The notes beneath the pieces were generated by a model. The model worked only from the letters and a program-made list of their open reading frames with translations. It did not search any database and had not been told where the DNA came from. A program made the position numbers and the translations under genes. A stretch of DNA of 33,487 nt from Candidatus Bathyarchaeota archaeon (GTDB lineage Archaea > Thermoproteota > Bathyarchaeia > Bathyarchaeales > WUQV01): the NCBI GenBank assembly GCA_029934005.1, contig JAOZNA010000003.1:1-33487 (forward strand), written 5' to 3'. Each line of letters starts with the position of its first letter. Position 1 is the first letter of the stretch. Below are positions 3,045 to 23,362 of this stretch, piece by piece.

Positions 3045-6000
3045 ATGAAAAAAGGGGTTGGAGTTTTCATAATTCTGCTAATATTATGTAGCTCATTGAC
3101 AACCGCTACGGCAATTAGTTACGTTGAACCTATTCGGATTGCTGTATTAGACGCTTCTGCTGAGCAAATGCCAAGATTGGGCGATTTCGATATTCTCGTC
3201 ATGGATGGCATATGGCTTCAAGAAAAAATTCGAAGTAATGATGCGGAATTAATCAGTTTTGTCAAGGATACAATTTTGGCAGGTGTACCTACGTTAACTT
3301 TTAATGGAGGATATATAATCCACAAGATTATCGGTAACCTCCCTATTAAAGAATATTTGAATCAGCCGATAATGATTCACGGGTTAAAAGTCTATTCTGA
3401 GAAAGTCAATAACCTGATGCGGAGCGAAGAGCTGTTCATTGGTGGTGTAAACACAACTAGCACAGAAATGATGGCTAAAGCCTGTGAATGGGCTATCAAG
3501 AGAATTTCAAAAACGGATTATTCAACAATGGGCAATGATCCAGATGTTGAAGTGAATTTCGCACAAACAACTGGTAGTCCCTACTGGGAGCATATAGCAA
3601 CGCATCAGTGGATATATTACATGAATCCTTATGGCAATCTGAACATGACACGCTGTTGGTATGCGCTTGTTAATGATGGAAGTAATACATACGACTGGTT
3701 CAACTTGGTTATGGAAACCACATCTGTGCCAGGGAAAGCTGTTTACGGTAGTGATTGGCGTACTGCCGACATATGGAACTGGGTTGATGCAGATTACTTT
3801 AGAGATCCTAATCTACTTATTGACTATGGTCCTCCAAATACACAAGGTGTATCGACTGTAAACTATCAGATTGGTGTCGAAGCAGGAGAGCAGGGCGCCG
3901 TTGTTACATGTAAAATGGCTGTAAGCTATTCAGTTCAAGATGTTCCGGTTGAAGACCAAAGTGACCCATCCGAGCAGCTTGCAAAATGGTGGCATAACGT
4001 ACCAGAACAGGGAGACACGGGTATGAATCCATATACTATTAAGCCAGGCATAACGATGAGAGTTCTGCCTATAGCTCCTACGTCCATACGCAATTGGTAT
4101 CAAGTACAATACATGCAACCAAATTGGTTCTGGGGCTGGTTAATTCCAGACAAGTATATGTCACCAGAATTCATTGTAGATACCGTAATAGATTATCCAC
4201 GAAGCATAAATATCTTTATAGTTAAAGCAAGCGACTCCTCCTCGTCATGGATTGAAAATGTCGAAGATGTAAAAGCAGGAATATTGGAAGCTGTAAATGA
4301 CGCCAATACAAGGACTAGAGTCAAGCTTTCTAACGAACAAATTAATTGGTATGAAATCACATCTACCCAAGACTTACTCGGCTTGGTACTTAATCCTCCG
4401 CTTAGAGCAGTAATTGTCAACACTCATGGTGAAACTATACCCATGCCTAGTTGGTACTTCGGCCCATCTATTCACATAACCTCACCCTCTGATGGGCAAA
4501 CAATTTATTCCAGCCCAACAGTCTATGCTGATGTTTATCCACCGCAAGGGACGTCGCTTCAATTAAGTCAACCCGAAGGTTACACTCAGTGGTCTTATGT
4601 TTGGGTTATGTGGTACCGTCCCAGCACCGGGGCATCAAGTTGGATGCCAATGTATCCTAACGCGAGCGGAGGTGGAACCTACTATAAGTATATAAGCCTT
4701 CCAGCATACGATACCTATCAAATATACGTAGTAGCAGCGGCTAATAACCTCGTCAGTGTTGCCCATATCACCGTCCATTATCAGTATAGCGGAGGCGGAG
4801 GCGGGGGCTGTCCTTACGTAAGCGTTTGGAACGGCACACATTTTATGATTGACAATAATCTATTGCGAGGTGGATTCTCTGAAACAGACATTACAGACTA
4901 TTATAAGCTGGAACAAACTCTAGTTCCTAATGATGGAATCTACTCTTTACAGCTTAGCGAATTTGAAGAGGAACACAACTTCATTGATCAAGTTAAACTT
5001 CTCGCCATAGACCACGCATCTAACGTTAGCGTGGCTGTGAGTCCCTACGGTGAGATCTTGACATATATGAATCCACATCCGCCAGTTTCAGCTATAACCA
5101 ATGAACACAAAAATGTTAAAAAGCTCCTAAGCTCCATTGATGGAAAATATTATCAAGGCTATAATGGAAGCTACATTACCTTGAACTTTGGAGATGAGCT
5201 GGACGTAAGCCAAGGTGCAAAGCTCGTCATAAGGTCTGATAGGTTTGCGGTTAAAACATCAATTCGCATTCAAGTCCAAGATAAAAATGGCGAATGGAAC
5301 ACTGTGGCTTCATTTGTTCCAAGAACCTATTGGTCAACAGAAATCTTCGACATGACTGAATACTTACCAGACGCCAAAGGAAATCTGAAAGTAAGGCTGT
5401 ACTTCACAGCGAACCATAAAATAGACTTTGTGGGTTTAGACACAAGTCCACAAGCAACACTAAAAATTAAAGAGGGTTGTTTGGTTTCTGCCACACATAG
5501 TACTGGATTAAAGATTCTAGGCTCAGAGTCAACTCAAATAAAAGCAACTTACAAAAACTTATTAAAGAGCGACAACGTTTATACAGAGTTAACCCCCGGC
5601 TACCGCATACAAATGAATTTTACCGTTCCTGAAAAGGATGCCACGGATGAAATTCGAGACTTTATATTTATTGTTGAAGGTCACTATAGGAAAGCGGGCT
5701 CTCCATATGGTTGCATGGTTAACTGGCAAGATTGGTTCGACCTTTTGGAAGATAGAACGAGAAACTATGGGTGGATATGGACAAATGTGGCGGGTTACTC
5801 TTGCTACTATTTCGGAAACACATGGTACGAATCGAAGATTCCGGAAGCTTATCGAGAAATCCCAGGTGAAAACGGGCTAAAACAGTTCTTGAGTAAAGAT
5901 GTCACCGCCTACTTTTATGATGGACATGTAGCACGAAGGGGATTGGATTTTCTAGAGAGGACAGGTTTTGATCCGCAAGTCTACAACGACCTACCTACAA

Positions 6001-6947
6001 CAGATATCGTTGCTTCAAGACCGCTTCCTAAGACCGCGGGACTTCCATGGAACACAATCGGGTACATAGACGCTTCAACAGATGATCGTGTAACAGCCTC
6101 AATAGCTATGAATACCTCTTCGCTGGACGGCATAATGCCTGGGATTTTCATTCACAGCGGCTTCGATGCAAGTGCAAGCGACTGGTTAAAAGGGTACATA
6201 GCAAGTATGTTGGCAATAGAAGAAGCAAGGGCGTTCCTAATGATGCCAAAGACATTAACACAAACACAAGGTAACATTCATGCGGCAACGTTCTCTGTAA
6301 CAATGTTACCAGGAGGATGGGGAGAGGGCCACACAACCTTTCCAGATACGGGGCTCGATCAGGATTATAGATACGTGGACCTTATGCTTATCATCTCGAC
6401 ACATTACGAAAGTTATTTGTGGACCGTACCTGGTGCTACGTATTCTCATTCATTATCTGAAGCGGATTTCAAATTTGACAGTGCTGACACGGAAGTATGG
6501 GCGGAGATTGACCTTGAACACTCTGGATGGGAAACTGGCGACTACGAATCGGTAGAATTTCTGAACGATCTCGGTTGGTGGTTCGTGGGGCTTTCCGCAG
6601 ATATTCTTGGAAGTTTCATCGATGTCCCATATCTTGGATCAGTTGTGGGTTTAATCCCCGTTCTCATAAGAGGACCTAACCCACCAAATCTTCAGCCCGA
6701 CCTCAGTCATCATGTATGGGCCAACGGAACGTTGATTGATCCAAATGATGACAATTGGGGTACGATGAGCTTTTATTTCAGAGTAATCTTCCGAATAGAC
6801 GGGCTACCGAGAGATTACGTATTTGATCTTGGAATGGCTTCGTGGATCGATTGCTGGGTGTTTCCAGATGAAGGGCTACCATATCATTTTACAAGGTTTG
6901 CAGCTATTTCATTTAATACGCAACTGCAATTCACGGTGACTGGATGA
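3045..6947 (+). CDS. Giant secreted multidomain protein of unknown function
   Basis: 1300-aa ORF with an ATG start preceded by AGGTGG. The signal peptide is MKKGVGVFIILLILCSSLTTATA. Two alpha/beta-looking modules are visible (IRIAVLD...FDILVMDG and INIFIVKAS...RAVIVNTHGETIPMP). A Gly6 linker (4791-4808) is followed by Cys and a beta-rich module (CPYVSVWNGTHF...). There is no C-terminal TM segment. Confidence 0.85.
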   Translation: MKKGVGVFIILLILCSSLTTATAISYVEPIRIAVLDASAEQMPRLGDFDILVMDGIWLQEKIRSNDAELISFVKDTILAGVPTLTFNGGYIIHKIIGNLPIKEYLNQPIMIHGLKVYSEKVNNLMRSEELFIGGVNTTSTEMMAKACEWAIKRISKTDYSTMGNDPDVEVNFAQTTGSPYWEHIATHQWIYYMNPYGNLNMTRCWYALVNDGSNTYDWFNLVMETTSVPGKAVYGSDWRTADIWNWVDADYFRDPNLLIDYGPPNTQGVSTVNYQIGVEAGEQGAVVTCKMAVSYSVQDVPVEDQSDPSEQLAKWWHNVPEQGDTGMNPYTIKPGITMRVLPIAPTSIRNWYQVQYMQPNWFWGWLIPDKYMSPEFIVDTVIDYPRSINIFIVKASDSSSSWIENVEDVKAGILEAVNDANTRTRVKLSNEQINWYEITSTQDLLGLVLNPPLRAVIVNTHGETIPMPSWYFGPSIHITSPSDGQTIYSSPTVYADVYPPQGTSLQLSQPEGYTQWSYVWVMWYRPSTGASSWMPMYPNASGGGTYYKYISLPAYDTYQIYVVAAANNLVSVAHITVHYQYSGGGGGGCPYVSVWNGTHFMIDNNLLRGGFSETDITDYYKLEQTLVPNDGIYSLQLSEFEEEHNFIDQVKLLAIDHASNVSVAVSPYGEILTYMNPHPPVSAITNEHKNVKKLLSSIDGKYYQGYNGSYITLNFGDELDVSQGAKLVIRSDRFAVKTSIRIQVQDKNGEWNTVASFVPRTYWSTEIFDMTEYLPDAKGNLKVRLYFTANHKIDFVGLDTSPQATLKIKEGCLVSATHSTGLKILGSESTQIKATYKNLLKSDNVYTELTPGYRIQMNFTVPEKDATDEIRDFIFIVEGHYRKAGSPYGCMVNWQDWFDLLEDRTRNYGWIWTNVAGYSCYYFGNTWYESKIPEAYREIPGENGLKQFLSKDVTAYFYDGHVARRGLDFLERTGFDPQVYNDLPTTDIVASRPLPKTAGLPWNTIGYIDASTDDRVTASIAMNTSSLDGIMPGIFIHSGFDASASDWLKGYIASMLAIEEARAFLMMPKTLTQTQGNIHAATFSVTMLPGGWGEGHTTFPDTGLDQDYRYVDLMLIISTHYESYLWTVPGATYSHSLSEADFKFDSADTEVWAEIDLEHSGWETGDYESVEFLNDLGWWFVGLSADILGSFIDVPYLGSVVGLIPVLIRGPNPPNLQPDLSHHVWANGTLIDPNDDNWGTMSFYFRVIFRIDGLPRDYVFDLGMASWIDCWVFPDEGLPYHFTRFAAISFNTQLQFTVTG

Positions 6948-8329
6948 AGTTAAAATATCTAGCAATTTCAACCTTTGCTATATTCCTAATCTCCCTTCTT
7001 TTTTCTGCAAGCATTATTCAAGCTCAAACACAGATTTTAACTGAAACTAGAAAATCAGCCATTGTAAAGGCACTCACTCAAAAACAGCTGAGAAAATGGG
7101 CGGAATTTGAAGCAATGATTTTAATCATCTTTAAAATTTTAGATGCCCTCAAAGAAACAAATATCACAGAAGCGATAGTTAGAATTGTTTCTCAGCAGAA
7201 TGTAACAATAGATAATGTAACATTATGGGGTTGGCCAGCTAAGTTCGGGGAGTCATTAACATATGTTACTAACCCACATAGAATTAATACATGTTTGACC
7301 GCTCTGAGGTTGGTTAACGCCCTTAACCAGGTGAATAAGGAAGCTTTAATTGAAATGGCTCTCTCCAGGTATAATGAATCCGATGGAGCTTTCCATGAGC
7401 CCGTATTCAAAATCGAATACTCTGATGGCAGAATAGAAAATCGCACAATCACCGGTTTTCCTCTTGAATTTTATGCTATAAGTGATTTGGCGTATGCAGA
7501 ATCCAATATAATTAGCACATTTGAATGGATTTCGATTCTCGCGCAATTGAATGCGTTAGATAAAATCAATACAACAAAAACTCTGGAATGGATTTTAAGC
7601 TGTAAAGCGGAAAATGGAGCATTTAAGCCATTTCCTGAATCTAGTCCAGAATATTTGCCTCCTTGGTCATCTTTACGCACAAACCCATTTTATGTAGATA
7701 GGTATGGAACAGGTTTAGCCTATACCTACGCAGCGATCTCAACGCTTAAAATCTTAGGTTATCTTAAAGATAATAATGCCATAAATAGAGAAAAGATAAA
7801 GGAGTATGTGTTTTCATGTTTAGTAGTTACTACCCGTGATACAGCTTATTTCAAGGCTCATCCAGACGATAAACGAGGGACAGTTGGCATTGGAGCGAGG
7901 CAGTATAACTACTACGCTGTAAAAACATTAGAATGCATTGGGATGCTCGAAGAATCAATGTCCGAATTAATAAGGGTTCGGAAGTACCTCCTTGAAGAGT
8001 ATCAAAATCTTTACTATAGAGACTCGTGGCTATTGCCAAATAGGTTATGGAATGCCACATGGAAAGAGAATACATGGGCAGATGTCTACGGCCTTTTTGG
8101 AGGATCCTTTACCCCAGTACAAGCAACATATTATGCAGTACTGACTTTAAATTTAACAAAAAGTTTACACTTTCTAAACCAACTTACACCAGCAGCTTTA
8201 AAAGCATGGTACAATTTAACTATTTTATCCCTTGTGATATCTGGAATCTCAGTTTTAGGCATTCTCATCTATAAAGAAATATTAAGAAAAGGGAAGAATG
8301 AAAAAGCAATAATTTCCATGCCTCTCTAG
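6944..8329 (+). CDS. Secreted, C-terminally membrane-anchored repeat protein, possibly alpha/alpha-toroid (prenyltransferase/squalene-oxidase-repeat-like)
   Basis: 461-aa ORF whose ATG overlaps the upstream TGA (ATGA at 6944-6947), with GGTGA 5 nt upstream. The signal peptide ends ...SASIIQAQT. Spaced motifs recur: YNESDGAFHEP, CKAENGAFKPFP, FSCLVVTTRDTAYF. The C-terminal TM segment is ILSLVISGISVLGILIY followed by KEILRKGK. Confidence 0.8.
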   Translation: MKLKYLAISTFAIFLISLLFSASIIQAQTQILTETRKSAIVKALTQKQLRKWAEFEAMILIIFKILDALKETNITEAIVRIVSQQNVTIDNVTLWGWPAKFGESLTYVTNPHRINTCLTALRLVNALNQVNKEALIEMALSRYNESDGAFHEPVFKIEYSDGRIENRTITGFPLEFYAISDLAYAESNIISTFEWISILAQLNALDKINTTKTLEWILSCKAENGAFKPFPESSPEYLPPWSSLRTNPFYVDRYGTGLAYTYAAISTLKILGYLKDNNAINREKIKEYVFSCLVVTTRDTAYFKAHPDDKRGTVGIGARQYNYYAVKTLECIGMLEESMSELIRVRKYLLEEYQNLYYRDSWLLPNRLWNATWKENTWADVYGLFGGSFTPVQATYYAVLTLNLTKSLHFLNQLTPAALKAWYNLTILSLVISGISVLGILIYKEILRKGKNEKAIISMPL

Positions 8330-8767: not shown

Positions 8768-8855
8768 TGGTGCGGGGGGTGGGATTTGAACCCACGAACC
8801 CCTACGGGACAGGCTCCTGAAGCCTGCGCCTTTAACCTGGCTCGGCAACCCCCGC
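8768..8855 (-). tRNA. tRNA-Leu (anticodon CAG), class II with long variable arm, genomically encoded CCA
   Basis: The reverse complement is GCGGGGGTTGCCGAGCCAGGTTAAAGGCGCAGGCTTCAGGAGCCTGTCCCGTAGGGGTTCGTGGGTTCAAATCCCACCCCCCGCACCA. The fold has a 7-bp acceptor, a 3-bp D stem, anticodon stem CAGGC/GCCTG with loop TTCAGGA, a variable arm CCC-GTA-GGG, and T arm GTGGG-TTCAAAT-CCCAC. A TTTT run follows the 3' end. Confidence 0.95.
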
Positions 8856-9511: not shown

Positions 9512-9613
9512 ATGCAAAACTTCGTGTACTTATTAACATTTAGTTTGTTTCTTCTTGTCGTAAATTTCGAAATCTTTATTTATTGTGTATTCGTGTTGCG
9601 CTTCAACACAAAA

Positions 9614-9626
9614 ATATTTATTAAAT
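9614..9626 (+). promoter_or_regulatory. TATA-like box, spacing consistent with a leaderless transcript starting near ATG 9645
   Basis: atatttattaaat is centred about 25 nt upstream of ATG 9645, and no SD-like motif lies between them. Confidence 0.35.
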
Positions 9627-9644
9627 CTTAAGATACGGTATTCA

Positions 9645-10130
9645 ATGGTGATGCCAATAAAAGCCCAAACCTACCTCCCAAAAATGTCCATTCTACTAAT
9701 AATAATGGTGGCAGTAGCATCAGCCATAACAGCCTTAATAGCTTCAGGCATCCTAACAAGAAACATCAGAGTTCCAAACAGTGGGCAAGTAAAAACTATA
9801 GGAATAGGCGCTTATCAAGATCCTCAGTGCCAAATTCCCTTACAATCAATTGATTGGGGAGACTTACTCCCTGGAGACCAGAAAAGCAGAACAATTTATT
9901 TAAAAAATGAAGGAGATGTGACAATTATCCTTACTCATACCGTAGGAAATTGGACTCCAACGGAAGCGCAAAACTATCTAAGTTTGACTTGGAATCGAGA
10001 AAACTATGTAGTTCAACCTAACGAAATCATCAATGCTACTTTAACCCTCACAGTTAATGCAACTGCACCTGGATTTGGAAGTTTCACGTTCGACTTGACA
10101 ATTATAGGAACAGAACAAGTAGAAGCGTAG
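9645..10130 (+). CDS. Small signal-anchored secreted beta-sandwich protein (paralog family member 1)
   Basis: The track ORF starts at GTG 9585. ATG 9645 (MVMPIKAQ...) is better placed relative to the TATA-like box. An N-terminal TM segment (MSILLIIMVAVASAITALIASGIL) is followed by a beta-rich domain (IDWGDLLPGDQKSRTIYLKNEGDVTIIL ... NATLTLTVNATA ... FTFDLTIIG). This domain is collinear with ORFs 17827-18375 and 15668-15925. Confidence 0.75.
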   Translation: MVMPIKAQTYLPKMSILLIIMVAVASAITALIASGILTRNIRVPNSGQVKTIGIGAYQDPQCQIPLQSIDWGDLLPGDQKSRTIYLKNEGDVTIILTHTVGNWTPTEAQNYLSLTWNRENYVVQPNEIINATLTLTVNATAPGFGSFTFDLTIIGTEQVEA

Positions 10131-10237: not shown

Positions 10238-10444
10238 TTAGAACGGGTAGAAAACACGCATCACAACAGTAATCATAAAACCTACTCCCAAAGCCAGAGC
10301 CACCAATCTTAACCGTTTCTTTTCTATCAAAATTTTTCCGGTGTATTCGGTTGCAGATGATATAAGTTCTGAAGTTATTAAAAGTAATATTGCCATAAAA
10401 GCCAGCCAAAGGCTTATATCCGACATGGATAAGGGAAAGTTCAT
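10238..10444 (-). CDS. Small two-TM membrane protein, last gene of the archaeosortase operon
   Basis: ATG at 10444 (MNFPLSMSDISLW...) lies 2 nt after the upstream stop at 10447. There are two hydrophobic helices separated by KILIEKKRLR. The longer track start at 10471 would overlap the upstream gene. Confidence 0.55.
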   Translation of the reverse strand: MNFPLSMSDISLWLAFMAILLLITSELISSATEYTGKILIEKKRLRLVALALGVGFMITVVMRVFYPF

Positions 10445-10446
10445 TT

Positions 10447-11352
10447 TTAATCCTCTACAAAACTGTACCAAAACTCCACGGTTTGAAAATCTGTTGATAC
10501 ATTATCCTTTTCTATTGTAACTATTTTTCCAGATGCCTTAGCTATTGCACATGCTATAGCGCTTGCGAGTGGACATCCGAGAAAATGAACACTCTTTAAG
10601 TTTTGTTCTCTTTTATACAAATTCTTATAAATTGAATCATCTATTCTTACGTAAATTTTTTTCTTATCCCTTTTCATTTCAACTTCCTTTGCTAGCTCCA
10701 AACTTTCCGTAATTATTTGTGGGAGCCTTTCAAGAAGTGTCTCTAAATCTACCTTAGTAACATCTTCTCTCAGTTCTCTTTCAATTTGGTTTAGCAAGCC
10801 AAGTCCAGGTGGAGAAATACAGATTCCATTCGGATTTTTAAGTAGAAATTTGCTTTTCGCAATTTCTTCTATAGAGGGCATTTCTGGCCGAGTATCCGCT
10901 GATATGAAGACAACCATTTCTTTTAAGCCCCTAAGATATTCCGGCAGATAGACATCCTTCGGATAAGGCGGAATATAATAGCTTCTGCCTTTAAATTTTA
11001 AGTCATTTACTATTCTATCAACCGTTATGTATGTCGAAGTTGCTGCTAAGTCCAGTAAACTGCCTTTAACATATCTTATCGGCTTTATGAAGAAGAACAG
11101 AAATCCCCAAAATGTTAAGCTTAGCCCAATAAACGCGAGTATTTGGGATTCGCTAAGCACAGACAATACAAGTACAGTAATCCCAGAGGTCGTAAGCGTT
11201 ACTCCCACTTTTTCAGAGGGGATTCGTTTTGAACGTTCTAATTCAAACTTTAAACTTTCAATTTCAGATTGTAATTCCCGTATCCTTTCCACTAAGTATT
11301 TAGTTGTCCGCAGTTCAGAAAACGAACTTTCAACTTTCTCTTTTTCACTCAT
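10447..11352 (-). CDS. Membrane protein: N-terminal coiled coil + 2 TM + about 190-aa C-terminal domain, unknown function
   Basis: The track start at 11364 is TTG; an in-frame ATG at 11352 gives MSEKEKVES.... A heptad-like segment reads LVERIRELQSEIESLKFELERSK. The TM pair is VGVTLTTSGITVLVLSVLS / ILAFIGLSLTFWGFLFFFI. The gene starts 40 nt downstream of the archaeosortase stop. Confidence 0.75.
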   Translation of the reverse strand: MSEKEKVESSFSELRTTKYLVERIRELQSEIESLKFELERSKRIPSEKVGVTLTTSGITVLVLSVLSESQILAFIGLSLTFWGFLFFFIKPIRYVKGSLLDLAATSTYITVDRIVNDLKFKGRSYYIPPYPKDVYLPEYLRGLKEMVVFISADTRPEMPSIEEIAKSKFLLKNPNGICISPPGLGLLNQIERELREDVTKVDLETLLERLPQIITESLELAKEVEMKRDKKKIYVRIDDSIYKNLYKREQNLKSVHFLGCPLASAIACAIAKASGKIVTIEKDNVSTDFQTVEFWYSFVED

Positions 11353-11392
11353 TTTTAACAACAAATAAAACTTTTACATATTTTTAAGCTTT

Positions 11393-13456
11393 TTAGATTT
11401 CTAATTCATAAACTTTCCACACTAATTTAGGAACATTGTCAACGGACACAACATCCTTCCTTATAAAGCCATACTCCTCAAGGCGATTCAAAATGTCAAT
11501 TAATTCATCATTTTTCATAGATTTTCCAGTTTTTTCCCTAAAAGCATTCATAATTTCCATAGTCCCTACGTACTTTTTCTCCTTAGCCAAATCTATGACT
11601 GTCTGGAGAACGAGTTTATCATTTTTAGAGGCAAACCCTCTAAAAATTTTCAAATTTCTCATTCTTTTTCTTAATTCGTAACTATATTGACCTATTTTTG
11701 TAACAATAATTAAAACGGTTGAAATAACGAGTAGAAATTGTAACGCCGGGATTCCAAGTGAAATTAAACTCTGAAATTTTAGCGGTTCCCAATAAGAAGC
11801 AATAATTTTTCCTATACTCAACAATTCATTTTCAAATTCCCTATAATTTGTTGACTCATATGTTAATATTATTAAGCTTATTCTAACATACTTTTGTCCC
11901 ACAGTTACTCCTGTATCAAATGTTGCTCTTTCAAACCAATAAAGTGTAATCTGCGTATAGTTTTGTGGAGCTTTAAACGCCAAATAACGTGCAATTATAG
12001 AGGTGCCTTCCAGCAGATCTATTTCTCTGGAATCCAGCACTTTTACCAGAGGGTATCGTCCATGAGCCATTTGCCAGGTTATTAAGCATACTTCCCAACT
12101 ATGAAGGTTGGAAATGCTATTTGCAACATTTATTGAAACATATACGGTTGGTTTTGAGTAGTTTATGGGAAAATAAGCATACACAAGTGCAGCGTCTTGA
12201 TGTGCAATTTTTTCATAGTTTACGTCTCTGTATAAAAATTTAAGCTGATAATCTTGTATTTCTGGGAGAATTTCTGTTGTGTTTGTCCAGCTGGTTCCCG
12301 ATGATATTTTAATTGATTCTCCAGCCATCGCAAAAGTTGGTGCGTTAAGGCTTATGGTCACAAGCCAGCATCCAACTAGAAGCACTAGAACCTTCGCCCA
12401 AGTTTTAAATGAAATTTGCCAATTAGACTGGTTTAGAAAGTTTCCACATCGTAAACAGAAGGAAGCTTTCTCTTTTAGGCTTCTTTTACATTGTCGGCAG
12501 AACTTAATTTCCCGCGGTTTTGTAAAGAATTTTATTTTCAGAACTCTATCTGCAAAAATCAACGTGAAAAACATTCCGATGAATATTAGGATTATGCCTG
12601 CTATAGAGTGAAAAACGAACATGGCAATTTCTTCGCCGAAATAATGTCCTATCGAAACTATGGATGTTATCCGAACAATGTTTAAAGCTTCAAAAATAAA
12701 AAAGCCGCCTATAAACATCAAAATTTTCCTTTTTATTGAAGCTTTGCTAATGAAGGCTAAGAACGCTGAAAACATCGTGAATGCTATTAAGGAGTACATT
12801 CCTGAACATGGTAGGTCAACCGCAAACGAGACAGAATTCGAATCTGATAGTAATTGGATAATGGGTGGTCCATAAGAATATGATAACTTGACTGGAATGC
12901 CAAAACCTCGAAGCAGTATATAGGATATTTGGGTTTCAAAATTTGCCATAGATCCGCCAACAGCGTACATAAACTCCATTGGAGGCGGAACCAAGAAAAA
13001 TAAGAAAACTATTGGAAGAATCGATGTGATTAGTACTTTAGAATTTGATAGGACTAATACTATTCCCATTAAGAATATAGGAAGCGACATAAGGTGATAT
13101 TCCAACGGATAAAAAGTGTGAGAGCCATACCAATAAACCAAAAAAGCTATAAGGCATAAAATAACCCCGGCTAATTCATTCAGGTACTTTGTCGCCGACT
13201 GCTTCCGAATCTTCTCTAAACTAATTGAAGCTTTTATTAAATCCTTTTTTAAATAAAAGAGGAAAATAGCAAAAAATGGCACTAGGAGAATATGGCTGAA
13301 AGCCTCTGTTTGAACAGCCTCGTTAAACAAGATCTTAAGGTCATCACCATAAACAATAAAAATTAGCAAAATAACCAGAACAGCAAAAAAAATACATCGA
13401 TAATTAGTTTTTACGCTTATTCTAATTTTCTCTAACATTCTCATAGCTCTTACCAT
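11393..13456 (-). CDS. Archaeosortase/exosortase-family transpeptidase fused to zinc ribbon, EpsI-like ectodomain and C-terminal winged-helix domain
   Basis: 687 aa with an ATG start. The N-terminal motif is EAFSHILLVPFFAIFLFYLKK. The candidate catalytic Cys is in DLPCSGMYS (C217), the Arg in ALNIVRITS (R262) and the His in VFHSIAGII (H283), all within a polytopic core. CRQC-x10-CLRC spans aa 320-337. After a TM segment, an ectodomain carries EpsI-like LHSWEVCLITWQ and ITLYWFERA. A second TM segment (aa 564-586) and a basic patch are followed by a wHTH-like region, aa 611-683. Confidence 0.85.
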   Translation of the reverse strand: MVRAMRMLEKIRISVKTNYRCIFFAVLVILLIFIVYGDDLKILFNEAVQTEAFSHILLVPFFAIFLFYLKKDLIKASISLEKIRKQSATKYLNELAGVILCLIAFLVYWYGSHTFYPLEYHLMSLPIFLMGIVLVLSNSKVLITSILPIVFLFFLVPPPMEFMYAVGGSMANFETQISYILLRGFGIPVKLSYSYGPPIIQLLSDSNSVSFAVDLPCSGMYSLIAFTMFSAFLAFISKASIKRKILMFIGGFFIFEALNIVRITSIVSIGHYFGEEIAMFVFHSIAGIILIFIGMFFTLIFADRVLKIKFFTKPREIKFCRQCKRSLKEKASFCLRCGNFLNQSNWQISFKTWAKVLVLLVGCWLVTISLNAPTFAMAGESIKISSGTSWTNTTEILPEIQDYQLKFLYRDVNYEKIAHQDAALVYAYFPINYSKPTVYVSINVANSISNLHSWEVCLITWQMAHGRYPLVKVLDSREIDLLEGTSIIARYLAFKAPQNYTQITLYWFERATFDTGVTVGQKYVRISLIILTYESTNYREFENELLSIGKIIASYWEPLKFQSLISLGIPALQFLLVISTVLIIVTKIGQYSYELRKRMRNLKIFRGFASKNDKLVLQTVIDLAKEKKYVGTMEIMNAFREKTGKSMKNDELIDILNRLEEYGFIRKDVVSVDNVPKLVWKVYELEI

Positions 13457-13496: not shown

Positions 13497-14177
13497 TTAT
13501 AGTACTCTAAGAATTCTAGAGATCTTACCTCTATACTTAAAGGTGGCAAGTGCCATCATAAACATAAAAACACCCAAAATAGGACCGAACGGATACTGTG
13601 GAACAACATTTTGAAGCGGTACTGTAACTTCTATTATTGGCACTTGAGTACCATCAATCCAGAGAATAACTGCGAGAACTTGTCCTGGTCCCGGAACAAA
13701 ACCTTCCCCGTTATTCTCCGCTTCTTCCACCATATTCCTTCCTTCTTCGGTAGAAGGCATATTTCCACCATCAACAAAATACCATATTGCTTCCTTTATA
13801 TCATCCTTTGTTCCCTGCTTATAGTTTAGAATATAATTGACTTTATCCCAGTCTGGATCTGAATGCGGATTATCCTCATCATAGCTTGAATACATTCTGG
13901 CACTGTATTCTACACCAACACTAATGTAGTGATGCTCATCAACACACCATCCCAAATATATTCCATCTGAAACATGATAGCCAGAAGGTACATCGCTGAG
14001 CATTATATTGTAATAGCAGTTTTCTCCAGGATATTTAATTACTTCCATGGTGATTTCGCTTGAAGGAAGAAGAATGTATGGTGCATTTACAGCTGCATAG
14101 ACAGAACTAGACAGAACTAAAAGTAAGCCAACAAAGGAAATTGCGAATGCTATCTTAATCTTTTTTATAGTATACAT
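13497..14177 (-). CDS. Secreted protein with thioester-domain-like motifs and C-terminal sorting signal (putative archaeosortase substrate)
   Basis: 226 aa with an ATG start and GAGG 7 nt upstream. The signal peptide ends ...SSSVYAAVN. Motifs present are GWCVDE (C78), VNYILNY and IKEAIWYFVDG. The tail is QNVVPQYPFGP + hydrophobic helix + KYRGKISR. Confidence 0.85.
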   Translation of the reverse strand: MYTIKKIKIAFAISFVGLLLVLSSSVYAAVNAPYILLPSSEITMEVIKYPGENCYYNIMLSDVPSGYHVSDGIYLGWCVDEHHYISVGVEYSARMYSSYDEDNPHSDPDWDKVNYILNYKQGTKDDIKEAIWYFVDGGNMPSTEEGRNMVEEAENNGEGFVPGPGQVLAVILWIDGTQVPIIEVTVPLQNVVPQYPFGPILGVFMFMMALATFKYRGKISRILRVL

Positions 14178-14242: not shown

Positions 14243-14767
14243 TTAAGTGTTTTTTCTACTTAAAAAGGTTGTAAAGACAACTGCCATCAAAAGTATGATG
14301 GCAATGGTTCCTAAAGGAGTATAAGGTATTGTGTTAAATGACGTAGCTCTCACTGGGAAGCTATCCTGGTCACTTTGTGAAGTTTGGCCTTCGCTATTAA
14401 TGAATTTTGCCTTAACTGCCCACTCGCCGACTTCATCTGGTTGATAAGTATCTGTGAACCTATATACTTCTGTACCATCTGGCACTCCCGGCTCACCATT
14501 AGTATACCATATAGTATAAACTTCAACAGTAACATTTCTCTTAACTGTCGTATCGTTATATATCCATGTAAAAATAACTTTAGTTGTCGTATTGTCAGTT
14601 GTATCCGCCCAAGCTGCGACATTTTCACCAACAAGAACTTCTTGTCCATGATGATCCGTTGTTACACGATAACCTGATCCAAGCGATTTTTGAGCGTAAG
14701 CTGCGCTAAAGAATGAGTTAGCAACAAACATGAAAATTAACATCGATAACGCAAGTACTCTTTTCAT
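14243..14767 (-). CDS. Small secreted beta-rich protein with C-terminal sorting signal (putative archaeosortase substrate)
   Basis: The track start at 14776 is TTG; ATG at 14767 gives MKRVLALSMLIFMFVANSFFSAAYA, a signal peptide. The tail is FNTIPYTPLG + TIAIILLMAVVFTTFL + SRKNT. A TATA-like cttataaata lies about 30 nt upstream. Confidence 0.85.
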   Translation of the reverse strand: MKRVLALSMLIFMFVANSFFSAAYAQKSLGSGYRVTTDHHGQEVLVGENVAAWADTTDNTTTKVIFTWIYNDTTVKRNVTVEVYTIWYTNGEPGVPDGTEVYRFTDTYQPDEVGEWAVKAKFINSEGQTSQSDQDSFPVRATSFNTIPYTPLGTIAIILLMAVVFTTFLSRKNT

Positions 14768-14859
14768 TATGACCAACTTGTTATTATTCTTTTTGTTATT
14801 TATAAGTCCATATTGATCTTTACTCTAGAAAACTTCTTGTATTTTCCATTTTCGATTTC

Positions 14860-15546
14860 CTATGTGAATTTTGACTTGAGTATTGTTTTCAGAATTTTTA
14901 TTCCATCAAACAAAACTTGGAGCTTTGATTGATGATATTTTCTCTTTCTACAGTTTATGGGTATTTCTTGGTATTTAAATCCGTTTTTTAAACCTTTAAC
15001 TGTAAGTTCGGTTTCAATTTCGTATCCTTCAGAAGTTAAGTCTAGTTTTTCTAAAACTTCTCTTTTAAATGCCCTAAAACCTGTTTGGCTATCCGTCACG
15101 TATTTCCTTGTCAGAGTCATTATTATCGTATTTATTATTCTATTACCCACCCGATTCAGCTTAGTTGTTGAATCTTTCCCATTTCCCAAAAATCTTGAGC
15201 CAACAGTTATGTCTATACCATTAAAAAGAGGCTTAATCAACTTGGGAATTTCTTTTGGATCATGAGCACCATCTGAATCTAAAGTTATTATTATTTGACC
15301 TTTCGCATGTTTGAACCCTTTCCTTAAAGCGTATCCCTTCCCCCGATTTCTTCCGTTTGAGAGCACCGTTACCTTATATTTTGAAACTATCCACTTTGTT
15401 TTATCGGTTGATCCGTCGTCTACTACTATAATTTCATATGGATTCCTTATGTTTTCTAATACTGAAATTGTCTTATGGAGCACTTCACCTATGGTTCTCT
15501 CTTCATTGTATGCTGGAATAATCACTGAGATAGTCGAATAATCCAA
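14860..15546 (-). CDS. GT2-family glycosyltransferase, polyprenyl/dolichyl-phosphate sugar synthase-like
   Basis: 228 aa with only a TTG start available (GGGAGAG upstream). Motifs: ISVIIPAYNEE, IIVVDDGSTDKT, RGKGYALRKG, TLDSDGAHDP. Confidence 0.85.
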   Translation of the reverse strand: MDYSTISVIIPAYNEERTIGEVLHKTISVLENIRNPYEIIVVDDGSTDKTKWIVSKYKVTVLSNGRNRGKGYALRKGFKHAKGQIIITLDSDGAHDPKEIPKLIKPLFNGIDITVGSRFLGNGKDSTTKLNRVGNRIINTIIMTLTRKYVTDSQTGFRAFKREVLEKLDLTSEGYEIETELTVKGLKNGFKYQEIPINCRKRKYHQSKLQVLFDGIKILKTILKSKFT

Positions 15547-15667: not shown

Positions 15668-16140
15668 TCATGAAGAATGTTTTTCAGTTATGTGAATAAT
15701 TATGTCAAAACTGAAACTCCTCACGTCATTCTCTACGATGAAATTTATAAAACCGTTGGAGCTTGTAACATTTAGCGTTAATGTCAATTCCACTGTCTCA
15801 TCCGGCTTCAGAATTGTCATATTGCATTCTGGCTCAATTAATATTTCCATATAATCCGTTTTGTTGACTGGTCCAAGAATAGATTTATTTGTAGAATCAT
15901 AAAAAGTCCAATTAAACACCCTCAATAAGTCGAAAGGGAATCACAGGAAAACTTGCATCTGTAAGGAGGGGACTTGCCATACATAAGCCGTCTCTTCAGA
16001 GAGTCGCTTGTATTTTTTAGGTTCCACCAGTAAGCTTTCAATAACGATTTTTTCTTCCGAGTTTGTTACAATTAGCCATATAAATATAAAGGTCAATCAA
16101 AAAAGTAGAAAGAAGACGAGGTAAAGTGAAATGGATAACA
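15668..16140 (-). pseudogene. Decayed paralog of the small secreted beta-sandwich protein (17827-18375), with multiple frameshifts
   Basis: The 85-aa ORF 15668-15925 aligns to the C-terminal half of 17827-18375 (GPVNKTDY, ELTLTLNVTS, FIVENDVRSFSFDI). It has only a TTG start and an in-frame TGA 15 nt upstream. Other frames upstream read LSEETAYVWQVPSLQMQ (compare LSNDQKFLDWGTVYPGIMV) and FIWLIVTNSEE (compare SIWLSHNSD). Confidence 0.65.
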
Positions 16141-17826: not shown

Positions 17827-18375
17827 TTAGATAACCTGTATGCAAATATCAAAACTGAAGGTTTTTACATCGTTTTCAATCAGGAAATCTATGAAATCAT
17901 CTGAGTCTGCAACCTTCAGTGTTAAAGTTAGTTCCAGAGTTTGGTTTGGATGTATTAAAGTTTCATTTAGACTTACCTTTAATGTTAAATAATCCGTCTT
18001 ATTTACTGGGCCTTTAACTATTTTTCCCTGTGAATTGTTAAAAGCCCAATTCATCGTTTTTATAATTAACATGGCATCAACATTACTTCTACTAGTCACA
18101 TTTAAAGTTCGGTTTACCATAATCCCTGGATAAACAGTTCCCCAATCTAAGAATTTTTGGTCATTACTCAACTCTTTTAGGTCGCCCCCATAGACTTCAA
18201 CATTAATTGTGTGAATTGTTCCAATACTTGGAAGGTAGATATCGCTGTTGTGGCTTAGCCATATGGAAAGTAAAGTTTGAAGTAAAATGGTGATCAAAAC
18301 TGCTGCAATTATTGACAATAATGTTTTCTTGTTTTGTTTAATAGTGTCGGCCAGGAATTGAAAAGAAATTTTCAT
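17827..18375 (-). CDS. Small signal-anchored secreted beta-sandwich protein (paralog family member 2), rich in N-x-S/T sequons
   Basis: The track start at 18384 is TTG; ATG at 18375 gives MKISFQF.... The TM segment is LLSIIAAVLITILLQTLLSIWL. The domain is collinear with 9645-10130 (LDWGTVYPGIMVNRTLNVTS ... LELTLTLKV ... FSFDICIQV). Six sequons are present: NRT, NVT, NNS, NKT, NET, NQT. Confidence 0.8.
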   Translation of the reverse strand: MKISFQFLADTIKQNKKTLLSIIAAVLITILLQTLLSIWLSHNSDIYLPSIGTIHTINVEVYGGDLKELSNDQKFLDWGTVYPGIMVNRTLNVTSRSNVDAMLIIKTMNWAFNNSQGKIVKGPVNKTDYLTLKVSLNETLIHPNQTLELTLTLKVADSDDFIDFLIENDVKTFSFDICIQVI

Positions 18376-18414
18376 TGATTTCAACCAACAATAAGTAGGG
18401 GTATTTTATATTAA

Positions 18415-20107: not shown

Positions 20108-21090
20108 TTAAAGACCTACTTGATTTTTGTACGCTTGTTCAATTACTTCTAGATCTCTCAATCCATCTTCTTCTGTTGGCGTTGGCATCTTGTTGTGAAC
20201 CAAGCAGTTTACGAAATGTTGAAGTTCTGCAAGGTGGGCTTGATAGAACCGAGATGTATTTGTAGCTAGTATTTGAATTACTGTTAACAGTTTATTTTTA
20301 GGTTTATGTTGCATCTGGGCATGCTTTACAGTTCCGAAAAGTTTGACTTCAAGATGATATTGATGAGAAAACCAGCCCACCGATATAACCGCTTTTGTTC
20401 CATTTTTAAATTTAACTAGACATATTGCTGAATCTTCAAACGGCATGTTAAATCTATAACCTAAATAACTTTTTATACCTATTACTTCACCGAAGTACCA
20501 TCTTAGAAGGTTTATTACATGGCTTCCTAAATCGATAAGAGCTCCTCCTCCCGTCAGTTCTCTGTTAAACCACCATTCTGGCACTTGTCTTGGTGTCAAA
20601 CCTTCAGCTCTATGGAAAAATGGTCCAGAACTTATGTAGGTAGCGTGGGCGATTTCTATGTCGCCCAAAATTCCATTCCGAATTTGCTGTTTCAAGTGTT
20701 GAAACGCTGGATCGAATCTAATCGGATAACCGATCATCAACTTTACTGCGTTTTTCTTTGCCGCAAGACAATTTGCTTTGCTTCTTCAGTATTTCTTGCT
20801 ATTGGCTTTTCTAGGAATGTGTGCTTTTCCGCCTCGGCGGCGCTTTTGGCACATTGAGCATGTAAATGTGTGGGTAATGCTATTATAACTGCGTCTATAG
20901 CCGGGTCTTTTAGAAGCTGTTCATAACTCCCATAAGTTTTTCTGATGCCTGCGGTCTTCGCCATTTTTAGAGCTTTTTTGGATAGATCCGCTACAGCTAT
21001 CAGTTTAGCGTTCGCTAACTTTTTACAGTGTCGAAGATGAATTTTGCCTACGTATCCCAAACCAATTAAACCGAGTCCAAGCTTTCTCAT
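20108..21090 (-). pseudogene. Gfo/Idh/MocA-family NAD(P)-dependent oxidoreductase interrupted by a 1-nt frameshift
   Basis: The N-terminal ORF reads MRKLGLGLIGLGYVGKIH...FLEKPIARNTEEAKQIVLRQRKTQ*. The second frame is open from 20785 and reads ...AAKKNAVKLMIGYPIRFDP.... The canonical family sequence continues across the break near 20762-20770, which is not a homopolymer. Confidence 0.8.
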
Positions 21091-21103: not shown

Positions 21104-21996
21104 CTATTCTAATCCTAGTTTCTTGCTTATTCCTGTTTGAATAGCAATGGCGTATGCCCTGCTTAAAAGTTTAGTTTGCAAATTCTTCTTGGGGTAGCGG
21201 GATTTGAAGTATTCGAGTGGTTCACCCCTCGGGATGAAAGTTAAGTTTCCTAAACCTTCCTTACGGGCCAATTGGATATATCTTACTGCTTTCGGGTTCA
21301 CTCTCGCAATTTCCGCTGCCGCAACGTCTATTGCTACATGATCTTGGCTTGCCATTATTAAACCTAGTTTTCGTGGTTGAACCCTTGAAACTATATTTCC
21401 GTCGATTATGCAGAGGTCAAACTTCATTGCTTTGTTAATGGCGACTATTGCTTCATCAAGTACTGGGTGATATTTGTACTTTTTAGGGTAAGGATTGCAA
21501 CCGAAAATATTTTTTAATGCACATGTAATTTTGATTTTTTTATACTGTATTTTATCTTTGGCACGTTAATTTTTAAGTCCGCTTCTTTAATGGTCAGAGG
21601 AACCATTATTTCGAAAGACCGTTCCCCAGCAGTTACACGAACTACACTATATGGATCTTCAGAGAGACTAACAAGATTTACATTGTATTCGTCTGCGAGC
21701 TGCTCGTAACCTAGCATTCTAAAAGCATATTTGCATTGCATTGCAGAAGCATCCGATTCAACGATGGAGATGTTAACGTCAGGCGATATTTCTGAACGGA
21801 TTAAGTTGATTAATGCCCCTACAAACCTCGGATCAGTAGTTTGCCCAGTGGTGTAATCCCAATAATAACATAAGTTCGGTTTGATAACAACCTTTCTTGC
21901 CTTCTTTGGAAAAACATAATTGATGAGGTTTAGTGAACTCTCTATTGCTTTGGTTATATCTGAATTCTTAATCTGTACAAAACTTACGAGACTCAT
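21104..21996 (-). pseudogene. DUF362-like protein split by a -1 frame change inside an A7 run (pseudogene, sequencing error or recoding)
   Basis: The N-terminal part reads (M)SLVSFVQ...VVIKPNLCYY...INVPKIKYSIKKSKLHVH*. The -1 frame is open from 21565 and reads KKIKITCALKNIFGCNPYPK...MKFDLCIIDGNIV...ASQDHVAIDVAAAEIARV. The two frames join at T7 (plus strand) at 21535-21541. Confidence 0.75.
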
Positions 21997-23362
21997 AATA
22001 TTTTTCCTCAATTTTGCCGAGCCCTACCGCCCAATAGTCGAGTTTTCTGCTAAATTCCGTTGGATCAAAAATTCTCCGGCCGTCGATGACTATGGGGTGT
22101 TTCATATTTTTGATAAAATCCTTTGGATTTAACTTTTTAAATTCATCCCATTCTGTTACAATTATACAGCAGTCGGCGTTCTTTATGCAGTTAATCGGTG
22201 AAGAAGTATACTGAATGCTGTTGCCTAACCTTTTTCTTATATTTGGTGTTGCTGCGGGGTCATAGGCGGTGACTCTTGCCCCTTCTTTTAAGAGGGCCTT
22301 AATGATTTTTATGGAGACAGCCTCCCTTATATCGTCAGTATTAGGTTTAAAAGCCAATCCAAGTATAGCCACATGTCTTCCCTTTAGACTTCCAAGAGCT
22401 TCCTTGCATAACTTAATAGCTTTATATGGTTGGGTTTCATTCACCTTGTTAATTGCCTTCAGCAGGATCGGTTTATGACCCAAGCTTTTGCAAAAGGCTA
22501 TTAATGCCTTAATATCTTTTGGCAAGCAACTTCCTCCATATCCTAATCCTGCATTTAAAAACAACCGTCCGATACGCTTATCCAACCCGATGCCTTTAGC
22601 TACTACTGTTACATCTACGCCTGGAATTCTTTCACAAATGTCAGCGATGTGATTGATAAAGCTTATTTTCATGGCTAAGAAAGCGTTGTTGGCATATTTA
22701 ATAAGTTCAGCTGTTGAAAGGTTTGTTCTTAAAAGCGGAGGCGTTTGTTCACCATGTAGGTTTCGATACAGCATCTCTAACATGTCACCAGATTTTTTGT
22801 CATATTCACCAATTATAATGCGGTCGGGATGTAAAGTATCATTAACTGCCGATCCTTCCCGTAAAAATTCAGGATTTACACAGATTCCCCATTCTTCGCC
22901 GCAACGCTTGCCAGACTGTTTCTCAATAATGGGTTTAACAACATTTTCCGTTGTTCCGGGAATAACTGTGCTTTTAACGACGATTAAATGGTAATTTTCT
23001 TTTTCTTTCAATGCTTTCCCAATTTCGCGAGCTGCATTCTTAACATATTGTAGATTTATACTTCCATCACGCTTGCTAGGGGTTCCAACAGCAATGAAGG
23101 TAATGTCCGTCTTTAAAATAGCTTCTTTGCAGTCCAAAGTGCATTCTAAATAGCCCTCTTTCAAGTTTTCTTGTAAAAGATCTTTTAAGCCAGCTTCGTG
23201 GAAAGGAGGAATTCCCTTATTTATTAATATTACTTTCTTAGAGTCATGATCTATTGCAATTACCTTATACCCCTTACTGGCAAATCCTACCGCTATGCAT
23301 AAACCGACATAACCTGCTCCAATAATGGATATACGTTGTCTTGTCATAAAGGCTGCTTCCAT
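21968..23362 (-). CDS. ugd: UDP-glucose/GDP-mannose dehydrogenase family enzyme, probably UDP-glucose 6-dehydrogenase
   Basis: 464 aa. Motifs: ISIIGAGYVGL (Rossmann), GYGGSCLPKDIKAL (catalytic Cys motif), ILGLAFKPNTDDIRE. The alternative start M6 at 23347 looks more typical. The gene is adjacent to galU. Confidence 0.85.
   Translation of the reverse strand: MEAAFMTRQRISIIGAGYVGLCIAVGFASKGYKVIAIDHDSKKVILINKGIPPFHEAGLKDLLQENLKEGYLECTLDCKEAILKTDITFIAVGTPSKRDGSINLQYVKNAAREIGKALKEKENYHLIVVKSTVIPGTTENVVKPIIEKQSGKRCGEEWGICVNPEFLREGSAVNDTLHPDRIIIGEYDKKSGDMLEMLYRNLHGEQTPPLLRTNLSTAELIKYANNAFLAMKISFINHIADICERIPGVDVTVVAKGIGLDKRIGRLFLNAGLGYGGSCLPKDIKALIAFCKSLGHKPILLKAINKVNETQPYKAIKLCKEALGSLKGRHVAILGLAFKPNTDDIREAVSIKIIKALLKEGARVTAYDPAATPNIRKRLGNSIQYTSSPINCIKNADCCIIVTEWDEFKKLNPKDFIKNMKHPIVIDGRRIFDPTEFSRKLDYWAVGLGKIEEKYYESRKFCTD

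Follow-up and report, generated by a model that had tools for sequence, protein, structure and literature searches.

A conserved exosortase-family protein of Bathyarchaeia joins a sortase core to a probable EpsI-type ectodomain and to cytoplasmic zinc-ribbon and winged-helix domains

The stretch of DNA analysed here (33,487 nucleotides (nt) of contig JAOZNA010000003.1 from Candidatus Bathyarchaeota archaeon, hereafter the window) carries an open reading frame (ORF) at 11393..13456 on the reverse strand (-), which encodes a 687 amino acid (aa) exosortase-family protein with four modules. The gene was delimited from the ORF list, Pfam and NCBIfam matches and clusters of homologs. A preliminary description, made from the sequence alone, had proposed a sortase core, a zinc ribbon, an EpsI-like ectodomain and a C-terminal winged helix; all four modules were upheld, and every motif it cited was found where it had been placed. 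EAFSHILLVP lies at aa 51–60 and DLPCSG at aa 214–219 (with C217 at nt 12806–12808), NIVRI contains R262 and FHSIAG contains H283. These are followed by CRQC-x10-CLRC at aa 320–337 (nt 12446–12499), LHSWEVCL at aa 451–458, LYWFERA at aa 505–511 and a C-terminal segment, DKLVLQ...KLVWKV, at aa 613–682 (nt 11411–11620).

The topology of the protein was predicted from hydropathy and the positive-inside rule, using counts of lysine and arginine (K/R). The N terminus is predicted inside, and about 8 transmembrane (TM) helices form the core. The loop at aa 303–347, which bears the four cysteines of the zinc ribbon, is placed inside because it contains 12 K/R. TM9 (aa 348–370; 12347..12415 (-)) then returns the chain to the outside, where a 196-aa domain is followed by TM10 (aa 567–585; 11702..11758 (-); hydropathy score 2.48), and the C-terminal 102 aa, with 21 K/R, are again predicted inside. 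The prediction matches the arrangement put forward earlier, with the zinc ribbon and the winged helix cytoplasmic and the EpsI module outside, and it positions Cys217, Arg262 and His283 at outer helix ends, on the same membrane side as the ectodomain. The idea that TM10 is a pseudo-substrate (GIPALQ, TM helix, RKRMR) was dropped, as its V/I-P is not conserved in the broad-family consensus.

The EpsH-type core with its 8 TM helices spans aa 22–305 (12542..13393 (-)), as judged by PF09721, BLASTP to XrtV and hydropathy. The Pfam model Exosortase_EpsH (PF09721) matches aa 30–302 with 112.3 bits against a cutoff of 25.7 (E 3e-32), and TIGR04178, the signature of exosortases and archaeosortases, reaches 60.6 bits with a cutoff of 23; because of these scores, and of 381 homolog clusters, the feature stands far above chance. 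A curated XrtV encoded on a Novosphingobium plasmid was matched by BLASTP with an E value of 5e-13, in an alignment that pairs DLPCSG with EDACSG, NIVRI with NVLRV and FHSIAG with LHATTG. The residues so paired correspond to the Cys/Arg/His set, similar to the sortase triad, that mutagenesis validated in ArtA of Haloferax volcanii (PMC6098224). Conservation was followed in 66 divergent family members, clustered at 50% identity, which serve as the representatives throughout. Cys is found in 51/66 of them at the catalytic Cys217 (codon 12806..12808 (-)), Arg in 61/66 at Arg262 (12671..12673 (-)) and His in 56/66 at His283 (12608..12610 (-)), each position being aligned to the corresponding XrtV residue. 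Hence a sortase core with Cys/Arg/His is borne out by models above cutoff and by aligned residues, while the name archaeosortase given to the protein earlier is not: its hidden Markov model (HMM) scores lie nearer the bacterial-type exosortases XrtW, XrtA and XrtD than any named archaeosortase. The named exosortase models all remained below their cutoffs (XrtW 87.4 vs 425; XrtA 86.2 vs 208; 8TM_EpsH 80.9 vs 105.55; XrtD 59.6 vs 400), as did ArtC with 26.3 bits against 100, and the ArtA, ArtB, ArtE and ArtF models gave no match to the window protein and weak matches to some relatives. Since every subfamily score falls far under its cutoff, the gene is, by these profile comparisons, an unnamed exosortase-like branch outside ArtA–ArtF.

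The fusion had been presented as unusual; its distribution shows that it is no isolated case. The top 120 homolog clusters are all about 680–700 aa long with 94–100% query coverage, the architecture is common to more than 300 clusters, and 41/41 loci from species-representative genomes belong to Bathyarchaeia, complete chromosomes included; the gene thus represents a conserved family of this lineage. Proteins of about 335 aa with the order TM helix, ectodomain, TM helix and winged helix were considered as stand-alone forms and rejected as contig-edge truncations, because in locus L005 the frame stays open beyond the called Met, in the upstream direction, and covers TM8 and a CPTC...CPAC ribbon.

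The extracellular alpha+beta domain (aa 371–566; 11759..12346 (-)), defined by an AlphaFold2 (AF2) model, by profile–profile alignment with EpsI (hhalign) and by conservation, is the best-conserved module of the protein. Its AF2 model has a pLDDT of 79, rising to about 90 in the core. As an EpsI reference we used the EpsI gene that adjoins xrtV in locus L006 and collected 120 EpsI homologs, all annotated PF11984; in the window family the ectodomain, extracytoplasmic by topology, is fused to the exosortase, and in L006 xrtV and epsI form a gene pair. The L006 EpsI motifs ARFYRD, LQLHRPEVCYP and IVYWTRV match, in the same order, KFLYRD, NLHSWEVCLI and LYWFERA of the ectodomain. H, P, E and C of the EpsI motif H-x-P-E-x-C are present in 120/120 homologs and YW in 116–119/120, and H452, E455, C457, Y506 and W507 are invariant in the close family, with W replacing the P of EpsI. 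H452-S-W-E455-V-C457 (12086..12103 (-)) would therefore be the counterpart of H-R-P-E-x-C. The hhalign comparison of the ectodomain profile with the 120 EpsI sequences aligned 143 co-linear columns with a score of 31 (P 6e-4), against 13.3±2.5 and a maximum of 20.1 for 60 column-shuffled controls and 12 for the reversed profile (z about 7). In addition, Pfam DUF3485 gave a weak, sub-threshold match on the ectodomain in 5/66 relatives (best E 0.0056, library-wide), and in the relative P0142 this match spans profile positions 3–156, exactly on the ectodomain. Finally, in known EpsH-EpsI fusions EpsI comes behind the core and a single TM helix (PMC1569441); the ectodomain occupies that very position, in line with the earlier remark that exosortase-EpsI fusions occur in bacteria.

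Several observations pull the other way. The window ectodomain has zero Pfam or NCBIfam matches even at E<=10, the hhalign probability of the EpsI match is low (28%), and Foldseek against the PDB returned no close solved relative, with TM-scores of at most 0.45 for the top matches (3lyd, PYL/START, PsbP and Apa). Searches by hmmsearch in both directions between the family and a V-type EpsI HMM were not significant, with consistent match placement; PDB sequence searches with EpsI and with the whole 687-aa protein found no solved structure. The ectodomain profile retrieves only 227 representatives among 1.84 billion proteins, nearly all with the same architecture. One could read these results as a domain unrelated to EpsI, namely a separate domain of Bet v1/START- or PsbP/Apa-like type, for ligand binding or sensing, which carries a short H..E.C motif by chance. 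We regard this as improbable: the Foldseek scores are too low for any alternative fold, and because of them the ectodomain was given no fold family, while chance would also have to account for the co-linear alignment above the shuffled maximum, the DUF3485 matches, the invariant H, E, C and YW common to both groups and a placement equal to that of the known fusions. Because of the co-linear alignment above the shuffles, DUF3485 in relatives and the same invariant residues, the ectodomain is very likely a highly divergent EpsI-type domain. The EpsI resemblance noticed at first thus stands at the level of profiles, relatives and shared motif residues, and not as a direct HMM match in the window protein itself.

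The catalytic cysteine of the core and the cysteine of the H-x-x-E-x-C motif are kept or lost together. Of the 66 representatives, 50 have both Cys217 and Cys457, 14 lack both and 2 have only one of them (Fisher p 3e-12). C457 is the sole cysteine of the ectodomain, and both cysteines are predicted to face outside. A rough neighbour-joining tree spreads the joint losses over at least seven scattered places, each with Cys/Cys sisters, and a Cys/Ser intermediate adjoins a Ser/Ser pair. The catalytic Cys is missing from 15/66 representatives (P0151, P0206, P0252 and P0267 among them), which often have Ser at both positions and retain Arg and His; cleanly aligned members with Cys replaced by Ser at both sites keep Arg, His, H452 and E455, as in the combination of GVASSG with LHGPEVS. 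Such Cys-less members could be pseudo-sortases or Ser-nucleophile variants. One of the Ser/Ser members, P0267 (L048:10001-12250), is an orphan among metabolic genes, with no polysaccharide (EPS) cluster, DUF7982 gene or VPExP-tailed proteins nearby, and it keeps the zinc ribbon, the ectodomain and the winged helix despite the missing catalytic Cys.

That the two cysteines are kept or lost together suggests that the EpsI domain has a redox function or shares in catalysis. On the simplest reading of the covariation its cysteine acts jointly with that of the core, whether in a shared site, as a thiol relay or as a disulfide gate. Three considerations temper this reading. The coupling could reflect repeated loss of the whole function in paralogs and not physical proximity; shared ancestry and the roughness of the tree are a caveat on its statistics; and the orphan Cys-less paralog hints at a role beyond catalysis, possibly in signalling. 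A combined scheme would have the EpsI-type domain co-catalytic, its Cys acting with His and Glu in a two-thiol acyl relay or a redox/disulfide gate, and would have its state passed via TM10 to the winged helix, with the signalling half surviving in the Cys-less orphans; we hold this scheme to be possible but doubtful.

On the cytoplasmic side, the zinc ribbon loop (aa 313–343; 12428..12520 (-)) was recognised by CRQC-x10-CLRC, by sub-threshold DZR/Zn_ribbon matches and by its K/R content. The Pfam zinc-ribbon models stay under cutoff on the window protein (DZR 17.6 vs 27.3; Zn_ribbon_15 17.9 vs 28.9), and DZR is matched in 25/66 relatives. C334 and C337 are Cys in 60/66 representatives and all four ligands (C320, C323, C334, C337) are Cys in 34/66; most of the remaining ones have a CxH...CxxC variant, and 6/66 are without a ribbon. 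The ligands are thus kept in about 60 of 66 divergent members, as CxxC or CxH paired with CxxC, which supports the zinc ribbon as a module.

The C-terminal winged-helix domain (aa 611–683; 11408..11626 (-)) was characterised with AF2, Foldseek and surface statistics. It is preceded by a basic juxtamembrane helix (aa 596–608), in which the positive charge is concentrated. The AF2 model (pLDDT 85) has three helices followed by a beta-hairpin, and the top 50 Foldseek matches in the PDB are all winged helices (PadR, Stf76, the Cdc6 winged-helix domain (WHD), TFIIE and the cullin winged-helix B (WHB) domain), with a probability of 1.00 and a TMq of about 0.6 for PadR, Cdc6 WHD and Stf76. Because of this pLDDT and of these uniform matches the fold claim holds, and the topology prediction makes the domain cytoplasmic, as had been proposed. 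The winged-helix Pfam models are under cutoff (Cdc6_C 21.2 vs 25.1; PadR 12.8 vs 27), and Sigma70_r1_1 scores 20 bits on the C-terminal domain, just under its cutoff. The domain is kept in nearly all family members.

A coupling of surface-protein processing to transcription had been suggested on the strength of this domain: the ectodomain would sense surface-protein or EPS status and the tethered winged helix would bind DNA like ToxR/CadC, or be released, and so regulate transcription. In its favour, the fold is a true winged helix whose best matches include PadR-type regulators and Stf76, the domain is predicted in the cytoplasm, and its retention in Cys-less members and in the orphan paralog, which has no substrates nearby, fits signalling independent of catalysis. 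The surface of the domain argues against it. In family statistics several exposed positions of helix 3, from its start, are 35–74% D/E and variable, the would-be base-contacting positions being variable as well; the wing tip reads D/N-D-E-P, with D/E at residue 674 in 86%; and, averaged over the family, the domain has a net charge of -0.24. Furthermore, the structural matches include winged helices that do not bind DNA (cullin WHB, TFIIE), the acidic sigma-70 region 1.1 appears among the profile matches, and every winged-helix Pfam match is sub-cutoff. With helix 3 and the wing tip acidic and variable and a net charge near zero, DNA binding is not favoured, and we consider the transcriptional model unlikely.

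The same charges suggest another arrangement, in which the zinc ribbon and the winged helix have a structural role alone and clasp the TM9–ectodomain–TM10 unit to the core, with the acidic winged helix docked on the basic ribbon loop and no external partner. The two domains do flank the inserted module on the cytoplasmic side, and the 12 K/R of the loop are complementary to the acidic winged-helix surface; however, the six representatives without a zinc ribbon keep the winged helix, and bacterial EpsH-EpsI fusions do without both domains, the NCBIfam XrtD and XrtW profiles having 486–494 positions. This clasp is a rather improbable explanation. We favour instead a protein-binding platform, a speculative proposal for which surface chemistry is the evidence, and which counts among the weaker points of the overall interpretation.

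Candidate substrates lie next to the sortase gene. The first putative substrate, a 226-aa protein with a signal peptide and the C-terminal sequence ...NVVPQYPFGP followed by a TM helix and KYRGK, was identified in a motif survey at 13497..14177 (-), 40 nt upstream of the sortase start, and has an ortholog in locus L007 that is 58% identical. The second (14243..14776 (-); ORF list and motif survey), of 177 aa, also has a signal peptide and ends with ...RATSFNTIPYTPLGT, a TM helix and SRKNT; its orthologs end in RATSFN(V/I)(V/I)P(E/D)xP...G in many loci. Other sortase-adjacent proteins with signal peptides have tails such as RATSFNVIPELPIIGTAG-TM-RKRR and NVVPEYPFGP-TM-KRK. The regular expression [VITM][VIT]P[EDQY].P occurs 39 times at 22–45 aa from the C terminus versus 3 times elsewhere (200,984 ORF residues). 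Of these tails, 38/39 are encoded on the sortase strand, many ending 41–200 nt upstream of the sortase, and C-terminal (V/I)PExP tails lie beside the sortase in 26/42 loci. None of the curated CTERM models matches the signature part when run on 10 tails, so the signal is none of the known archaeosortase ones such as PGF-, PEF-, VPXXXP- or PIP-CTERM. Read from their sequence, the tails form a PEP-CTERM-like, uncatalogued sorting signal composed of (V/I)PExP-G, a TM helix and K/R. A possible further substrate, encoded at 603..2600 (-) about 9 kb from the sortase, is a 665-aa secreted protein with a beta-propeller (SBBP/delta-60) and TSP3 repeats; its tail, ...FNVVPQPQ followed by a TM helix and KKG, is a variant missed by the strict expression.

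The sortase neighbourhood is a polysaccharide/glycosylation cluster with a conserved order: a family 2 glycosyltransferase (GT2) comes first, with one or two genes for small secreted proteins between it and the sortase; beyond the sortase lie the genes for a DUF7982-like protein and a 68-aa protein with 2 TM helices, for an anchored protein of about 150 aa on the opposite strand, and for YdjM. In the window, the intergenic gaps from GT2 through the 68-aa gene are 83, 65, 40, 28 and 2 nt, the close packing of an operon. GT2 (14860..15546 (-)), which resembles AglJ/dolichyl-phosphate hexose transferases (PF00535, E 2e-39; TIGR04182, 168 bits), heads the gene string, a place upstream of the sortase that it also keeps in L001 and L002. 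The DUF7982-like protein (10447..11364 (-), 28 nt from the sortase) has 305 aa with a coiled coil, 2 TM helices and a cytoplasmic domain; it is 57% identical to the DUF7982 genes of L001 and L003, and this hallmark is found in 29/41 loci. After a gap of 2 nt comes the 68-aa protein (10238..10444 (-)), 71% identical to its L001 and L003 orthologs. Both proteins are candidates for binding to the cytoplasmic modules. In two relatives a Wzx/Polysacc_synt flippase is fused, within one continuous gene, to the N-terminal side of the sortase–EpsI–winged-helix unit (P0154, L049:435-4064, 1209 aa; P0149, 957 aa), a Rosetta-stone link from protein sorting to polysaccharide export.

Several further features of the window were recorded. 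Small paralogs at 9585..10130 (+), 17827..18384 (-) and 15668..15925 (-) have an N-terminal anchor, a probable beta-sandwich and a weak 'choice-of-anchor D' match; the 85-aa ORF among them resembles a truncated copy, and one copy is syntenic on the opposite strand in L001 (11327..11779) and L003 (15068..15523). A GFO_IDH_MocA oxidoreductase is apparently split into ORFs of 115 and 210 aa (20108..21090 (-)) and a DUF362 protein into ORFs of 165 and 107 aa (21104..22011 (-)); their L001 counterparts are single genes of 328 and 307 aa, and the splits in the window are frameshifts, pseudogenes or sequencing errors. A 1300-aa secreted protein is encoded at 3045..6947 (+), overlapped by a 461-aa ORF with a C-terminal TM helix at 6944..8329 (+), and a tRNA-Leu (CAG) lies at 8768..8855 (-), between the YdjM-like gene and the upstream genes.

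By analogy with characterised systems, the product of the gene is probably a dedicated cysteine transpeptidase/protease of the exosortase type (EpsH family), with which Bathyarchaeia trim and re-anchor surface proteins. As in the ArtA and PEP-CTERM systems, substrates would be exported by Sec and held in the membrane by a C-terminal (V/I)(V/I)P(E/D/Q/Y)xP..G, a TM helix and a K/R tail. The 8-TM core would then cleave at the signature with Cys217, Arg262 and His283 on the outer membrane face, and the cleaved protein would go to an acceptor, for instance water, a lipid or a glycan. The EpsI-like domain, flanked by TM9 and TM10, is predicted outside. Its H452/E455/C457 cluster, evolutionarily locked to the catalytic cysteine, may belong to the active site, supply a second thiol to an acyl relay or act on Cys217 as a redox/disulfide switch. 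Inside, the zinc ribbon and the winged helix might form a platform that binds proteins and does not read DNA; its ligands might be the basic substrate tails, the zinc-ribbon loop with its basic residues, or the two membrane proteins encoded alongside, the DUF7982-like one and the one of 68 aa. To the whole of this reading, that is a dedicated sortase with a co-catalytic EpsI domain and cytoplasmic domains forming a platform that does not bind DNA, we assign a probability of about 0.6.

The protein shares with the bacterial exosortase-EpsI fusions (XrtD, XrtW), and with XrtA and XrtV and their adjacent EpsI, the 8-TM EpsH core with Cys/Arg/His, and its best HMM scores are with XrtW, XrtA and XrtD; as in the fusions, the EpsI-type domain lies outside after one extra TM helix (PMC1569441). 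It differs from them in its archaeal host, in the additional zinc ribbon, TM10 and cytoplasmic winged helix, and in the strong divergence of its EpsI domain. PEP-CTERM/EpsH systems likewise combine a PEP-like signature, a TM helix and a basic tail with a polysaccharide gene cluster (PMC1569441), although the signature of the present family is (V/I)PExP-G and not PEP. The archaeosortases ArtA–ArtG have in common with the window protein the TIGR04178 superfamily signature and an archaeal host, and the H. volcanii ArtA/PGF-CTERM pair offers an apt parallel in which a tripartite C-terminal signal is cleaved and the protein re-anchored; yet the similarity to ArtA–ArtG is weak, and the window protein has EpsI, zinc-ribbon and winged-helix modules. 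To our knowledge, archaeosortases have been described in Euryarchaeota and carry none of these three modules. With the EpsI family (PF11984/DUF3485, TIGR02914) the ectodomain shares H-x-x-E-x-C and YW, a co-linear profile, an extracytoplasmic location and attachment to, or a position beside, an exosortase; unlike that family, it scores below the family HMM cutoff. Bacterial EpsI (230 aa) stops at the end of its periplasmic domain; here the chain continues into a second TM helix and a cytoplasmic domain. ToxR/CadC-type regulators also join an extracytoplasmic domain via a TM helix to a cytoplasmic winged helix, but here the winged helix is C-terminal, acidic, unconserved at the DNA-reading positions, without OmpR/PhoB homology and fused to an enzyme. 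In the searchable literature we found no earlier description of an exosortase with a winged helix, nor of archaeosortases in Bathyarchaeota.

Exosortase/EpsI systems occur widely among environmental bacteria and archaea, and Bathyarchaeia are a major uncultured sediment lineage. An uncatalogued sortase subfamily with its own sorting signal could serve to predict the surface proteome of this lineage, and the family is a rare case of a surface-processing enzyme joined to cytoplasmic zinc-ribbon and winged-helix domains. From its definition in 2006 onwards, EpsI has had 'no known function' (PMC1569441). The joint loss of the catalytic and EpsI cysteines in several lineages amounts to a natural covariation experiment that makes the function of EpsI a testable hypothesis, and this hypothesis is the main value of the family; if true, a co-catalytic EpsI would explain the presence of EpsI in PEP-CTERM/exosortase systems generally.

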